Assembly: GCF_024298765.1 (NCBI RefSeq)
Contig: NZ_CP101210.1
Strand: one strand, 5' to 3'
Length of the DNA stretch: 64,000 nucleotides
From: Escherichia coli
GTDB lineage: Bacteria > Pseudomonadota > Gammaproteobacteria > Enterobacterales > Enterobacteriaceae
The notes beneath the pieces are model-generated. The model saw only the letters and a list, made by a program, of their open reading frames with translations. It searched no databases and was not told the origin of the DNA. The position numbers were made by a program, and so were the translations under genes. Of the stretch, positions 48,738 to 60,502 are shown one piece after another (the first letter of the stretch is position 1; the number at the start of each line of letters is the position of its first letter).

Positions 48738-49547
48738 ATGCTTTTTGATGTTTTTCAGCAATACCCCGCGGCGATGCCCATACTGGCAACCGTCGGAGGA
48801 TTGATCATCGGCAGTTTTTTGAATGTGGTGATTTGGCGTTACCCCATCATGCTGCGCCAACAAATGGCGGAGTTTCATGGTGAAACGCCGAGTACGCAGT
48901 CAAAAATAAGCCTGGCGCTGCCACGCTCGCACTGTCCGCATTGCCAGCAGACTATCCGCGTTCGTGACAATATTCCGCTGCTCTCCTGGTTGATGCTCAA
49001 AGGGCGCTGCCGCGACTGTCAGGCGAAAATCAGCAAGCGTTATCCGCTGGTGGAGTTATTGACGGCACTCGCTTTTTTGCTGGCGAGCCTGGTGTGGCCG
49101 GAAAGTGGATGGGCGCTGGCGGTGATGATATTATCCGCCTGGCTGATTGCCGCGAGCGTCATTGACCTCGATAACCAATGGCTGCCCGATGTTTTTACTC
49201 AGGGCGTATTGTGGACGGGACTAATTGCGGCATGGGCGCAGCAGAGTCCGCTCACGCTACAAGACGCAGTCACCGGCGTACTGGTGGGATTTATCACTTT
49301 TTACTCCCTGCGCTGGATAGCCGGAATAGTTCTGCGTAAAGAAGCATTAGGCATGGGCGATGTATTACTCTTCGCCGCTTTAGGTGGCTGGGTGGGGGCG
49401 TTATCACTGCCCAACGTTGCTTTAATCGCCTCATGCTGCGGCCTGATATATGCCGTTATTACAAAAAGAGGATCAACCACACTGCCTTTTGGACCGTGTT
49501 TAAGTCTGGGCGGTATAGCAACACTTTATCTACAGGCATTGTTTTAA
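48738..49547 (+). CDS. pppA: prepilin peptidase (type 4 leader peptidase / N-methyltransferase)
   Basis: ATG at 48738, 269 aa; CPHCQ...CRDCQ zinc motif; polytopic. Confidence 0.85.
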
Positions 49548-49612
49548 TGATAACAACGTCATTATCAAAGTGACATTTTAACTCTTATTAATAACCTTAG
49601 AGATTATTTACC

Positions 49613-50023
49613 ATGTCGATAAAACAAATGCCAGGGAGGGTATTAATATCGCTATTGTTGAGCGTTACAGGATTATTAAGTGGCTGCGCCAGCCATAATG
49701 AAAACGCCAGTTTACTGGCGAAAAAACAGGCGCAAAATATCAGCCAAAACCTGCCGATTAAATCTGCGGGATATACCTTAGTGCTGGCGCAAAGTAGTGG
49801 CACGACGGTAAAAATGACCATTATCAGCGAATCGGGTACTCAGACCACGCAGACACCTGACGCCTTTTTAACCAGCTATCAACGACAAATGTGCGCTGAC
49901 CCAACGGTGAAATTAATGATCACCGAGGGAATTAATTACAGCATAACGATTAATGATACACGTACAGGTAACCAGTATCAGCGGAAACTGGATCGTACCA
50001 CCTGTGGAATAGTCAAAGCATAA
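49613..50023 (+). CDS. yghG: T2SS-beta secretin pilotin lipoprotein (AspS/GspS-beta)
   Basis: 136 aa; lipobox LLSGCAS; position directly upstream of gspC-D. Confidence 0.75.
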   Translation: MSIKQMPGRVLISLLLSVTGLLSGCASHNENASLLAKKQAQNISQNLPIKSAGYTLVLAQSSGTTVKMTIISESGTQTTQTPDAFLTSYQRQMCADPTVKLMITEGINYSITINDTRTGNQYQRKLDRTTCGIVKA

Positions 50024-50157
50024 CGTCGGGTAGATATAAATTGGCGCGGGTTGTTTTTCGTGACGCACGAATTTATCTCATTCAATGGCTGACTAAAATT
50101 CGTCACATTCTTAGCCAGAGACAATCTCTTAATACAGACAAAGAGCATCTGCGAAAA

Positions 50158-57815: not shown

Positions 57816-58789
57816 TCACCTCACCACCAAAACGCGGAATGGCACTGGTCGTGGTGCTGGTATTGCTGGCGGTTATGATGCTGGTGACCATCACGCTTTC
57901 CGGGCGAATGCAGCAACAACTTGGGCGAACGCGCAGCCAGCAGGAGTACCAGCAGGCGCTGTGGTACAGCGCCAGTGCGGAAAGCCTGGCGTTGAGCGCA
58001 CTCAGTCTGAGCCTGAAAAATGAAAAGCGCGTGCATCTGGCGCAGCCGTGGGCTTCCGGCCCTCGTTTTTTCCCACTGCCGCAGGGGCAAATTGCCGTCA
58101 CCCTGCGTGACGCCCAGGCCTGCTTTAACCTGAATGCCCTCGCTCAGCCGACAACGGCGTCGCGTCCTATCGCGGTACAACAACTGATTGCCCTGATCTC
58201 GCGCCTGGATGTGCCTGCTTATCGGGCCGAACTGATAGCCGAAAGCCTGTGGGAGTTTATTGACGAGGACCGCAGCGTGCAGACGCGTCTGGGGCGTGAA
58301 GACAGCGAGTATCTCGCCCGCTCGGTGCCGTTCTACGCCGCCAATCAACCGCTGGCCGATATCAGTGAGATGCGCGTGGTACAGGGAATGGACGCCGGAC
58401 TTTATCAAAAACTGAAACCGCTGGTCTGTGCGCTGCCGATGACCCGCCAGCAAATCAACATCAATACCTTAGACGTCACGCAAAGTGTGATTCTTGAGGC
58501 GCTGTTTGACCCGTGGTTAAGCCCTGTTCAGGCGCGGGCGTTATTACAACAACGTCCGGCGAAGGGCTGGGAAGATGTCGATCAGTTTCTTGCTCAGCCG
58601 CTACTTGCAGACGTCGATGAGCGTACTAAAAAACAGCTAAAAACCATCCTGAGCGTGGACAGCAATTACTTCTGGCTGCGTTCAGATATCACCGTGAATG
58701 AGATTGAACTGACGATGAATTCGTTAATTGTCCGCATGGGCCCACAACACTTTTCTGTTCTCTGGCATCAGACAGGAGAAAGTGAGTGA
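57812..58789 (+). CDS. gspK: type II secretion minor pseudopilin K
   Basis: 325 aa; N-terminal TM helix; overlaps gspJ stop. Confidence 0.85.
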   Translation: MITSPPKRGMALVVVLVLLAVMMLVTITLSGRMQQQLGRTRSQQEYQQALWYSASAESLALSALSLSLKNEKRVHLAQPWASGPRFFPLPQGQIAVTLRDAQACFNLNALAQPTTASRPIAVQQLIALISRLDVPAYRAELIAESLWEFIDEDRSVQTRLGREDSEYLARSVPFYAANQPLADISEMRVVQGMDAGLYQKLKPLVCALPMTRQQININTLDVTQSVILEALFDPWLSPVQARALLQQRPAKGWEDVDQFLAQPLLADVDERTKKQLKTILSVDSNYFWLRSDITVNEIELTMNSLIVRMGPQHFSVLWHQTGESE

Positions 58790-59964
58790 GTTCCATGCTT
58801 GAGATTTTTTTCCCGCTTTGCGCCGCTGATCCCATCCGTTGGCAGCGCCATACACCCGACGTGGAGCACGGTATCTGGCCTGACGTTGCTGACGAACGTC
58901 TCCAGCAATGGCTGCAAACTGATGCGATTCGACTCTACATTCCCGGCGAATGGATCAGCGTCTGGCAGGTTGAACTGCCTGATGTGCCCCGCAAGCAGAT
59001 ACCGACGATTCTGCCCGCCTTGCTGGAAGAAGAGCTGAACCAGGATATCGATGAACTGCATTTCGCCCCGTTGAAAATCGACCAGCAACTGGCAACCGTA
59101 GCTGTGATTCACCAGCAGCATATGCGCAACATTGCGCAGTGGTTGCAGGCAAACGGCATCGCCCGCGCTACCGTCGCGCCGGACTGGATGTCCATTCCTT
59201 GTGGGTTTATGGCTGGCGATGCGCAACGGGTTATCTGCCGTATCGATGAATGCCGGGGATGGAGCGCCGGGCGGGCGCTGGCTCCGGTCATGTTCCGCGC
59301 ACAGCTCAATGAGCAGAATTTACCGATTTCACTAACTGTGGTCGGCATTGCACCGGAAGAACTGTCTGCATGGGCTGGTGCGGACGCCGAACGCCTGACC
59401 GTTACGGCTCTGCCCGCCATTACCACTTATGGCGAACCGGAAGGGAACCTGCTAACAGGGCCGTGGCAGCCTCGTGTTAGCTACCGAAAACAGTGGGCGC
59501 GCTGGCGGGTGATGATTCTGCCGATATTGCTGATTCTGGTTGCGCTGGTAGTGGAACGGGGCGTGACGTTATGGAGCGTCAGCGAACAGGTGGCGCAAAG
59601 CCGCACCCAGGCGGAGAAACAGTTCTTAACGCTATTCCCGGAGCAGAAGCGGATTGTGAATTTACGCTCGCAGGTGACGATGGCGCTGAAAAAATATCGC
59701 CCACAGGCTGATGATACCGATCTGCTTGCCGAGTTGTCTGCGATCGCCAGTACCCTGAAATCCGCATCACTTTCCGACATTGAGATGCGTGGTTTCACCT
59801 TTGATCAAAAACGCCAGACGCTTCACCTCCAGCTACGGGCTGCGAACTTTGCCAGCTTCGACAAACTGCGTAGCGCACTGGCGGTAGATTATGTTGTGCA
59901 ACAGGACGCGTTACAGAAAGAGGGTGATGCGGTTTCCGGCGGCGTAACGTTGCGGAGGAAATAA
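58786..59964 (+). CDS. gspL: type II secretion system protein L
   Basis: 392 aa (GTG 58786 or ATG 58795); single TM near residue 250. Confidence 0.8.
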   Translation: MSSMLEIFFPLCAADPIRWQRHTPDVEHGIWPDVADERLQQWLQTDAIRLYIPGEWISVWQVELPDVPRKQIPTILPALLEEELNQDIDELHFAPLKIDQQLATVAVIHQQHMRNIAQWLQANGIARATVAPDWMSIPCGFMAGDAQRVICRIDECRGWSAGRALAPVMFRAQLNEQNLPISLTVVGIAPEELSAWAGADAERLTVTALPAITTYGEPEGNLLTGPWQPRVSYRKQWARWRVMILPILLILVALVVERGVTLWSVSEQVAQSRTQAEKQFLTLFPEQKRIVNLRSQVTMALKKYRPQADDTDLLAELSAIASTLKSASLSDIEMRGFTFDQKRQTLHLQLRAANFASFDKLRSALAVDYVVQQDALQKEGDAVSGGVTLRRK

Positions 59965-59965
59965 C

Positions 59966-60502
59966 ATGTTACGCGATAAATTTATTCACTATTTTCAGCA
60001 ATGGCGTGAACGCCAGTTAAGCCGTGGCGAACACTGGCTGACACAACACCTGGCGGGGCGTTCGCCGCGTGAAAAGGGCATGTTACTGGCAGCGGCGGTG
60101 TTTCTGTTTAGCGCCGGATATTACGTCCTCATCTGGCAGCCTTTGAGCGAACGGATTGAGCAACAGGAGACGATGTTGCAACAGATGGTGGCGATGAACG
60201 CGCGACTGAAGAGCGCCGCGCCGGATATTATTGCGGCGCGAAAATCCGCCACAACAACGCCTGCACAGGTATCGCGGGTCATCAGCGATAGTGCTTCTGC
60301 GCACTCAGTGGTTATCAAGCGGATAGCCGAGCGCGGGGAGAATATTCAGGTCTGGATAGATCCGGTGGTGTTTAATGACCTGCTGAACTGGTTAAAAGCA
60401 CTGGATGAAAAGTATGCGCTGCGGGTGACACAAATTGATGTCAGCGCAGGTGAGAAGCCTGGAATGGTGAATGTGCAGCGGCTGGAATTTGGACGGGGAT
60501 AA
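59966..60502 (+). CDS. gspM: type II secretion system protein M
   Basis: 178 aa; N-terminal TM; last gene of operon. Confidence 0.8.
   Translation: MLRDKFIHYFQQWRERQLSRGEHWLTQHLAGRSPREKGMLLAAAVFLFSAGYYVLIWQPLSERIEQQETMLQQMVAMNARLKSAAPDIIAARKSATTTPAQVSRVISDSASAHSVVIKRIAERGENIQVWIDPVVFNDLLNWLKALDEKYALRVTQIDVSAGEKPGMVNVQRLEFGRG

Follow-up and report, generated by a model that had tools for sequence, protein, structure and literature searches.

Gene content and integrity of the locus

The window, by which we mean the whole stretch of 64,000 nucleotides of Escherichia coli DNA that was analysed, carries on its plus strand between positions 48738 and 60502 thirteen genes in the order pppA, yghG (gspS-beta/aspS) and gspC to gspM (Table 1). 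Immediately upstream of pppA and in the same orientation lies sslE, and the locus as a whole sits between the glc operon and pheV. On either side, glcA ends at 43533 and the last 19 nt of pheV occupy 60650-60668. All 14 open reading frames (sslE and the 13 genes) have lengths divisible by three, with no internal stop codons and no frameshifts. Strain 20Ec-P-124 carries the identical 12 kb, for which RefSeq annotates the same 13 coding sequences without a single pseudogene flag, and the TTG start of gspC agrees with the RefSeq annotation of identical DNA. The ATG of sslE and the start codon of pppA agree with the primers used in E. coli W, those for sslE having served for cloning and knock-out (PMC3707838). 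No hidden frameshift or truncation emerged when open reading frame lengths, the coverage of profile matches and RefSeq's annotation of identical DNA were examined. The initial annotation had described pppA, yghG and gspC–M as uninterrupted, and both this description and its gene order and coordinates hold exactly when compared with the open reading frames and profiles. We are highly confident that the locus is the undamaged chromosomal T2SS-beta of E. coli (sslE-pppA-yghG-gspCDEFGHIJKLM), a Vibrio-type T2SS, and the window sequence holds no counter-evidence to an intact T2SS-beta.

Table 1. Features of the T2SS-beta locus (positions in the window)
Feature	Position	Strand	Description
glcA-sslE intergenic region	43534..44017	+	Expected sslE/T2SS-beta promoter and H-NS/StpA/Fis control region
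sslE (yghJ)	44018-48574	+	Lipoprotein zinc metalloprotease (mucinase), substrate; first cistron of the published operon
sslE-pppA spacer	48575..48737	+	REP-like hairpins
pppA	48738-49547	+	Prepilin peptidase / N-methyltransferase
yghG (gspS-beta / aspS)	49613-50023	+	Outer-membrane pilotin lipoprotein for the secretin
gspC	50041-51000	+	TTG start; inner-membrane component, platform-to-secretin link
gspD	51030-53090	+	GTG start; outer-membrane secretin, Vibrio type
gspE	53090-54583	+	Cytoplasmic assembly ATPase
gspF	54583-55806	+	Polytopic inner-membrane platform protein
gspG	55823-56278	+	Major pseudopilin
gspH	56282-56845	+	GTG start; minor pseudopilin
gspI	56842-57213	+	Minor pseudopilin
gspJ	57210-57815	+	GTG start; minor pseudopilin
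gspK	57812-58789	+	Minor pseudopilin, pseudopilus tip, without Glu+5
gspL	58786-59964	+	GTG start; inner-membrane anchor of GspE
gspM (yghD)	59966-60502	+	Inner-membrane partner of GspL
14-bp hairpin	60528..60558	+	26 nt past the gspM stop; candidate (inferred) transcript end

Protein families, structural matches and motifs

The full core set C, D, E, F, G, H, I, J, K, L and M is present at full length. From GspC to GspM, NCBIfam equivalog or exception profiles aligned end to end with scores above their curated cut-offs: GspC (NF007242, 727 bits, 1-319 of 319), GspD (TIGR02517, 552 bits), GspE (TIGR02533, 705 bits against a cut-off of 630), GspF (TIGR02120, 491 bits, 4-405 of 407), GspG (TIGR01710, 192 bits), GspH (TIGR01708, 188 bits), GspI (TIGR01707, 90 bits), GspJ (TIGR01711, 172 bits), GspK (NF037980, 286 bits), GspL (TIGR01709, 182 bits, 10-385 of 392) and GspM (NF007274 YghD, 404 bits, 1-178 of 178). 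The NCBIfam search gave no match at E <= 0.001 for PppA and YghG, both of which were identified by Pfam. PppA matches A24_N_bact (4e-34) and Peptidase_A24 (9e-24) and has all of the CPHC and CRDC cysteines and the DLD and GMGDV aspartates of the peptidase. YghG matches T2SSS_2 (1.3e-16), has a lipobox (LSGC) at residues 22-25, and is covered over the mature protein (25-136) by PDB 5zdh chain P (7e-69); it also matches PDB 4ftf (VC1703), so that an AspS-type pilotin is encoded within the cluster. GspE has the Walker A sequence GPTGSGKS, Walker B, the His box and the tetracysteine zinc-site motif (CPDC/CPAC). The substrate SslE, of 1518 aa, matches the NCBIfam model metallo_SslE with 3474 bits over residues 1-1518 and PDB 23px over its full length, and carries a lipobox (LAGC) at 21-24 and HEVGH at 1302.

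Against PDB chains, GspD scored 1376 bits with 5zdh_A (residues 41-686), 732 and 729 bits with 5wq8 and 5wq9, and lower with 5wq7 (543) and 6hcg (544). We take 5zdh to be the ETEC structure, 5wq8 and 5wq9 V. cholerae GspD, 5wq7 E. coli K-12 GspD-alpha and 6hcg a Klebsiella complex. By this score ranking the secretin is of the Vibrio type and not of the Klebsiella type, a distinction for which we used the published classification criterion (PMC3542185).

According to the initial annotation, all five pseudopilins G–K carried a G/FTLLE leader. This is correct for four, the class III signal peptide (G/F-x-x-x-E) being found at residue 13 of GspG, 5 of GspH, 4 of GspI and 7 of GspJ, and incorrect for GspK, whose leader reads RG/MALVVV with no Glu at +5. 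The absence of Glu+5 is the normal state of GspK in this family, and the protein is identical to ETEC GspK (PDB 3ci0) at ~293 of 296 residues (~99%). The HR domain of GspC is similarly close to its ETEC counterpart (PDB 3oss chain C; 64 of 66 residues, 97%).

Assignment to the beta system is supported by two models, YghD at exception level and PRK09681 for GspC, by near-identity to ETEC 5zdh and 3ci0, and by the position between sslE and pheV. Identity with the alpha T2SS was considered and rejected, as genomic position, peptidase and pilotin genes, and model scores all speak against it; alpha-type models were reached only below their cut-offs (e.g. gspE, PRK10436, 462 bits versus 617).

Gene junctions and extent of the transcription unit

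From pppA to gspM, successive genes are spaced by +65, +17, +29, -1, -1, +16, +3, -4, -4, -4, -4 and +1 nt. Overlaps were initially called pervasive and assigned to most junctions, whereas the spacing count gives exactly half (6 of 12: D/E, E/F, H/I, I/J, J/K and K/L), with two further junctions at most 3 nt apart. This frequency is normal for such an operon, since 7 of 11 junctions overlap in the K-12 alpha T2SS operon. In the intact allele of ETEC TW10722, a single SNP abolishes the J/K overlap. On these two grounds, overlap as an unusual trait of the cluster was rejected.

PMC5012682, citing Yang 2007, describes sslE and the 13 downstream genes of ETEC as co-transcribed from a promoter upstream of sslE. 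The operon in the window therefore probably starts near 43.9-44.0 kb and not at pppA. A complete operon beginning with pppA had been proposed at first; its 13 genes are indeed intact, but the published ETEC transcription unit begins one gene earlier, at sslE.

Flanking and intergenic elements

The region between glcA and sslE has a GC content of 29.5% (versus 52% for the window) and contains the glcA terminator hairpin at 43543-43569. The location of the promoter and its regulators H-NS, StpA and Fis are known from published work (PMC5012682). A consensus scan for promoters returned no plus-strand sigma-70 match upstream of sslE, and overall it called promoter-like sites less often than in shuffled sequence; the promoter position given here is therefore taken from the literature alone. 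Within the cluster, the consensus scan found no strong internal promoter matches. The AT-rich upstream region and the lack of strong internal matches are consistent with a single H-NS/StpA-repressed transcript from the sslE promoter, such as is known from ETEC and UPEC (PMC5012682).

Between sslE and pppA, the spacer RNA is predicted to fold at -73.2 kcal/mol (z = -6.5), and its length is unlike that of K-12, as seen from a break in the alignment. It is conceivable, though improbable, that this REP-like spacer stabilises the 3' end of the mRNA or partly terminates transcription, and so uncouples the abundance of sslE from that of the 13 machine genes, in which case spacer-length variation among strains might feed into published differences in SslE level. 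Just as doubtful is a further idea, that the rare, divergent sslE/gsp allele class of the window might differ in substrate or antigenic properties. Downstream of gspM, the hairpin listed in Table 1 is not a canonical intrinsic terminator because its T run lies ~20 nt further downstream, and it was not called by the consensus terminator scan. An Rfam scan of 43000-64000 gave no family at gathering score, and a tRNA scan of the window gave no tRNA gene, only the 19-nt 3' fragment of pheV.

Comparison with K-12 and distribution among E. coli

The initial annotation stated that K-12 retains only degenerate remnants of this operon, and proposed a comparison. Alignment confirms the statement: K-12 MG1655 lacks ~8.0 kb corresponding to ~51000-58999 of the window, that is, gspD to gspK and the first ~214 nt of gspL, in agreement with PMC3707838. 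The K-12 remnant yghJ-pppA-yghG-yghF-yghE-yghD is the orthologous locus, with sslE, pppA, yghG, gspC, the 3' part of gspL and gspM aligning at 85-97% identity. Its deletion removes the gspC stop codon, so that the yghF frame continues into gspL-derived sequence. The end points are now documented to within a few bases, the junction showing a short TA/CCG microhomology inside which the exact crossover is ambiguous. K-12 also differs downstream: there yghD is followed at once by pheV, whereas the window has an island inserted at this point.

An intact T2SS-beta cluster is already known and ordinary in E. coli. At least 80% of the cluster is kept in 3214 of 5426 complete genomes (~59%), and the 12 kb studied here are shared at 100% identity by at least 25 complete genomes of E. 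coli, whose sources include humans, pigs, poultry and water. The particular gsp allele is rare, only 67 of 4359 matching records being >=99% identical over the 12 kb, and sslE is a sequence variant other than those of K-12 and TW10722 (85-89% nucleotide identity). All 14 genes are under purifying selection, with dN/dS values of 0.03-0.20 against the 95%-identical ETEC TW10722 allele.

The frequency with which the locus decays raises the question of whether an operon that looks intact might hide a missense change that inactivates one component, as an early stage of such decay. Signs of decay are the genomes that fall short of the 80% just given and the 369 genomes with the K-12 deletion junction; several other independent truncations occur, and in strain MSHS 133 an ISVsa5 transposase gene is annotated inside the otherwise identical 12-kb stretch. 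We nevertheless regard a disabling missense change as very improbable: the identical allele recurs in at least 25 genomes from unrelated hosts, every catalytic or processing motif that was checked is intact, identity to ETEC proteins purified and solved as complexes is 97-99%, and dN/dS is well below 1.

Proposed mechanism and predicted secretion competence

The following mechanism is established for the family and is extended to the present copy by homology. Transcription would start from the AT-rich promoter upstream of sslE, repressed by H-NS/StpA and activated by Fis. PppA is expected to cleave and methylate the prepilin leaders, at G/F in GspG, GspH, GspI and GspJ, and to cleave GspK at G/M. 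The lipoprotein pilotin YghG/AspS would bind the S-domain of GspD and escort it to the outer membrane to form the secretin channel, while GspC, GspF, GspL and GspM would make up the inner-membrane platform on which the GspE ATPase hexamer docks. ATP hydrolysis would then drive assembly of a short GspG pseudopilus with a GspK-I-J cap, which could push folded periplasmic substrates through the secretin: SslE and, in ETEC, also heat-labile toxin.

Every genetic prerequisite for SslE secretion is present; in E. coli W, secretion requires gspC-M and pppA (PMC3707838). Expression of the system and actual secretion of SslE by the source strain are predictions from its genes, and are kept as such because published expression varies with temperature, medium and strain. 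The cluster could be intact but silent, like the cryptic alpha T2SS of K-12, with H-NS/StpA repression unrelieved and SslE low or unsecreted. Such silence would fit the AT-rich upstream region with its lack of a strong sigma-70 match. It would also fit the strong H-NS/StpA repression seen at 22 C in ETEC, UTI89 and EC958, the last of which remains strongly H-NS-repressed, with low operon expression, at 37 C (PMC5012682). Expression of the operon varies from strain to strain (PMC5012682, PMC3707838), and in E. coli W both temperature and growth medium governed SslE secretion (PMC3707838). In the other direction, UTI89 and IHE3034 express and secrete SslE at high levels in LB at 37 C (PMC5012682), E. 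coli W has been shown to secrete the protein (PMC3707838), and the strong purifying selection across all 14 genes shows that the system is in use somewhere in the life cycle. On balance we consider a silent cluster unlikely, and the reading that we prefer is an intact T2SS-beta with the genes needed to secrete SslE.

The main value of the analysis lies in correct annotation, and no new question arises from it. The source strain is identified as an E. coli other than K-12 in which the SslE secretion pathway is retained. This pathway is a factor in colonisation, biofilms and mucinase activity, and also a vaccine-antigen system.

Comparison with known type II secretion systems

The E. coli T2SS-alpha (gspAB, gspC-O) shares with the present cluster the C-M core architecture, the five pseudopilins and a similar frequency of gene overlap, but occupies a separate locus beside rpsJ, bfr and chiA, includes gspAB, and has its peptidase gene, gspO, in last place. 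It secretes ChiA through a Klebsiella-type secretin, and is intact but cryptic in K-12. Closer in secretin type is the Eps system of Vibrio cholerae (EpsC-N, AspS pilotin, AcfD substrate), which also shares the AspS-type pilotin; AspS/YghG is the pilotin of Vibrio-type secretins, and the Eps substrate is likewise an AcfD/SslE homologue (PMC3542185). Eps belongs to another genus and sequence identity is much lower; in contrast to it, the E. coli cluster has its peptidase and pilotin genes upstream within the cluster and no annotated gspN. The T2SS-beta of ETEC H10407, EPEC E2348/69 and E. coli W agrees with the window in all 14 genes, in their order and in their site between the glc operon and pheV, the published context being glc operon - sslE - T2SS - pheV (PMC3707838), and the locus in the window differs from these only allelically.

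Gene content and integrity of the T2SS-beta cluster

The ORF listing and a direct reading-frame check place 14 co-oriented genes, sslE to gspM/yghD, on the + strand with no interruption (table below). The initial annotation had set an operon of 13 uninterrupted components at 48738-60502; this interval runs exactly from the start of pppA to the stop of gspM, and the operon's intactness is borne out by the reading frames and by unflagged RefSeq annotation of identical DNA (E. coli 20Ec-P-124: same genes, zero pseudogene flags). The number of complete E. coli chromosomes that share the 12 kb at 100% identity is at least 25, and their sources are human, pig, poultry and water.

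Features of the T2SS-beta cluster and its surroundings (window coordinates)
Feature	Position	Strand	Remark
sslE	44018-48574	+	ATG start
sslE-pppA spacer	48575-48737		REP-like palindromes
pppA	48738-49547	+	ATG start
yghG	49613-50023	+	ATG start
gspC	50041-51000	+	TTG start
gspD	51030-53090	+	GTG start
gspE	53090-54583	+	ATG start
gspF	54583-55806	+	ATG start
gspG	55823-56278	+	ATG start
gspH	56282-56845	+	GTG start
gspI	56842-57213	+	ATG start
gspJ	57210-57815	+	GTG start
gspK	57812-58789	+	ATG start
gspL	58786-59964	+	GTG start
yqhJ	~59770-59829	-	19 codons, antisense within gspL/yghE
gspM/yghD	59966-60502	+	ATG start
pheV remnant with terminator hairpin	60614-60668	-	last 19 nt of pheV at 60650-60668
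Island DNA	60669-64000
RelE/ParE-like toxin candidate	60916-61242	-	island DNA; adjoins ParD-family gene; below model cut-off
ParD-family antitoxin	61239-61502	-	island DNA

GspC through GspL, YghD (GspM) and SslE match NCBIfam models above curated cut-offs, essentially end to end, while PppA carries both Pfam prepilin-peptidase domains and YghG the Pfam T2SSS_2 pilotin domain. Also intact are the lipoboxes of SslE (LAGC) and YghG (LSGC), the HEVGH motif of SslE, the Walker A, Walker B, His box and tetracysteine sites of GspE, and the two CxxC pairs and both aspartate motifs of PppA. G/FTLLE leader signatures, initially assigned to all five pseudopilins G–K, occur in GspG, H, I and J, but GspK reads RG/MALVVV and lacks Glu+5, as GspK proteins normally do.

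GspD and YghG match their respective chains in the solved ETEC secretin-pilotin complex (PDB 5zdh) from the first mature residue on, GspK is identical to ETEC GspK (3ci0) at ~293/296 residues, and the GspC HR domain to 3oss at 64/66. For the GspD secretin, the V. cholerae GspD chains 5wq8/5wq9 outscore 5wq7 (GspD-alpha of E. coli K-12) and 6hcg (from a Klebsiella complex), an order that fits the published criterion for Vibrio-type secretins (PMC3542185).

Both gspC and gspD have an in-frame ATG further downstream (Met40 in GspC, Met6 in GspD), which leaves their true starts uncertain. The annotated gspC TTG has no obvious Shine-Dalgarno sequence, and the generic GspC profile TIGR01713 aligns from residue 43 only; the solved chain of ETEC GspD begins 40 codons after the gspD GTG.

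Against the ~95%-identical allele of ETEC TW10722, dN/dS was 0.03-0.20 and dS 0.08-0.44 across all 14 genes; the dN/dS values show that every one of them is maintained by purifying selection. Over most of its length sslE has only 85-89% nucleotide identity to K-12 yghJ, with the flanking glc genes at 96-98%, and SslE shares 90% amino-acid identity with that of TW10722 (dS 0.44). Such divergence fits the two published SslE variants (PMC4014459).

Gene junctions and transcription

Spacings from pppA to gspM are +65, +17, +29, -1, -1, +16, +3, -4, -4, -4, -4 and +1 nt, so that only half of the junctions (6/12) overlap, rather than most as first described. The overlaps take the common TAATG and ATGA/GTGA forms. 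The tight translational coupling proposed for the operon is plausible, but neither distinctive, with 7/11 junctions overlapping in the alpha T2SS operon of K-12, nor strictly conserved: the intact allele of TW10722 carries a single SNP that ends gspJ two codons sooner with a TAA, leaving a gap of 2 nt in place of the J/K overlap.

Starting the operon at pppA captured 13 + strand genes but not the likely transcript start, since in ETEC a promoter upstream of sslE drives co-transcription of sslE and 13 downstream genes, with H-NS/StpA repression at low temperature and, in UPEC, activation by Fis and TypA (PMC5012682). The 484-nt glcA-sslE spacer has a GC content of 29.5%, consistent with this H-NS/StpA-controlled promoter, whose location here is putative. 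The sslE-pppA spacer folds as RNA at -73 kcal/mol (z = -6.5), and an alignment break at 48669-48702 reflects its difference in length from the K-12 spacer. Lying between the substrate gene and the machine genes, the spacer may stabilise the mRNA or serve as an attenuator.

Decay of the locus in K-12 and other genomes

Alignment of MG1655 3105000-3125000 with the window confirmed the earlier statement that K-12 retains only remnants, in agreement with PMC3707838. About 8.0 kb, window ~51000-58999, is missing from K-12: the genes gspD through gspK, together with the 5'-most ~214 nt of gspL. A short TA/CCG microhomology at the junction leaves the exact end points uncertain by a few bases. The gspC stop codon is also lost, and K-12 'yghF' is therefore GspC plus 12 codons of gspL-derived sequence, while 'yghE' is gspL truncated at its 5' end. 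This junction is present in 369 of 5426 complete genomes, and different, independent truncations are seen in others; at least 80% of the cluster is retained in 3214. In MSHS 133 (NZ_CP041304.1) the otherwise 100% identical 12-kb stretch lies in two pieces with an ISVsa5 transposase gene (IS4-like) annotated inside, which may be a fresh case of decay. The frame of the K-12 small protein gene yqhJ is still open in the window, with 4 amino-acid changes relative to K-12 (VKRLAFLIKGETTHLNVGK).

Chromosomal context

The entire window is collinear with the 20Ec-P-124 chromosome, in the order yqhC ... hyb ... glc operon, sslE, T2SS-beta, pheV (tRNA-Phe) remnant and island DNA. T2SS-beta thus occupies its published position beside the hypervariable pheV site (PMC3707838). 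What remains of pheV is its final 19 nt (+ strand: TGGTGCCCGGACTCGGAAT) with the terminator hairpin; the window holds no intact tRNA gene. K-12 homology ends exactly at this remnant, which looks like the att scar at one boundary of a genomic island inserted at pheV. The first ~950 bp of the island, including the ParDE-like pair, are missing from the otherwise identical 20Ec-P-124; the DNA that follows is 86-92% identical to its DUF4942 / DUF957 / DUF5983 / CbtA / YeeU block. Identity to 20Ec-P-124 rises from 97-98.8% over 1-16000 to essentially 100% over 16001-60671 (44 kb), a shift that indicates a putative recombination breakpoint near 16 kb.

SslE secretion

In E. coli W, SslE secretion requires pppA and gspC-M (PMC3707838). 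Here the genetic prerequisites are complete, with sslE and pppA intact, which upholds the genetic part of the earlier claim of secretion competence; actual secretion of SslE by the source strain is an inference, because published T2SS-beta expression varies with temperature, medium and strain. The identification as T2SS-beta is correct, and the system is a well-characterised one, already known and widespread in E. coli.
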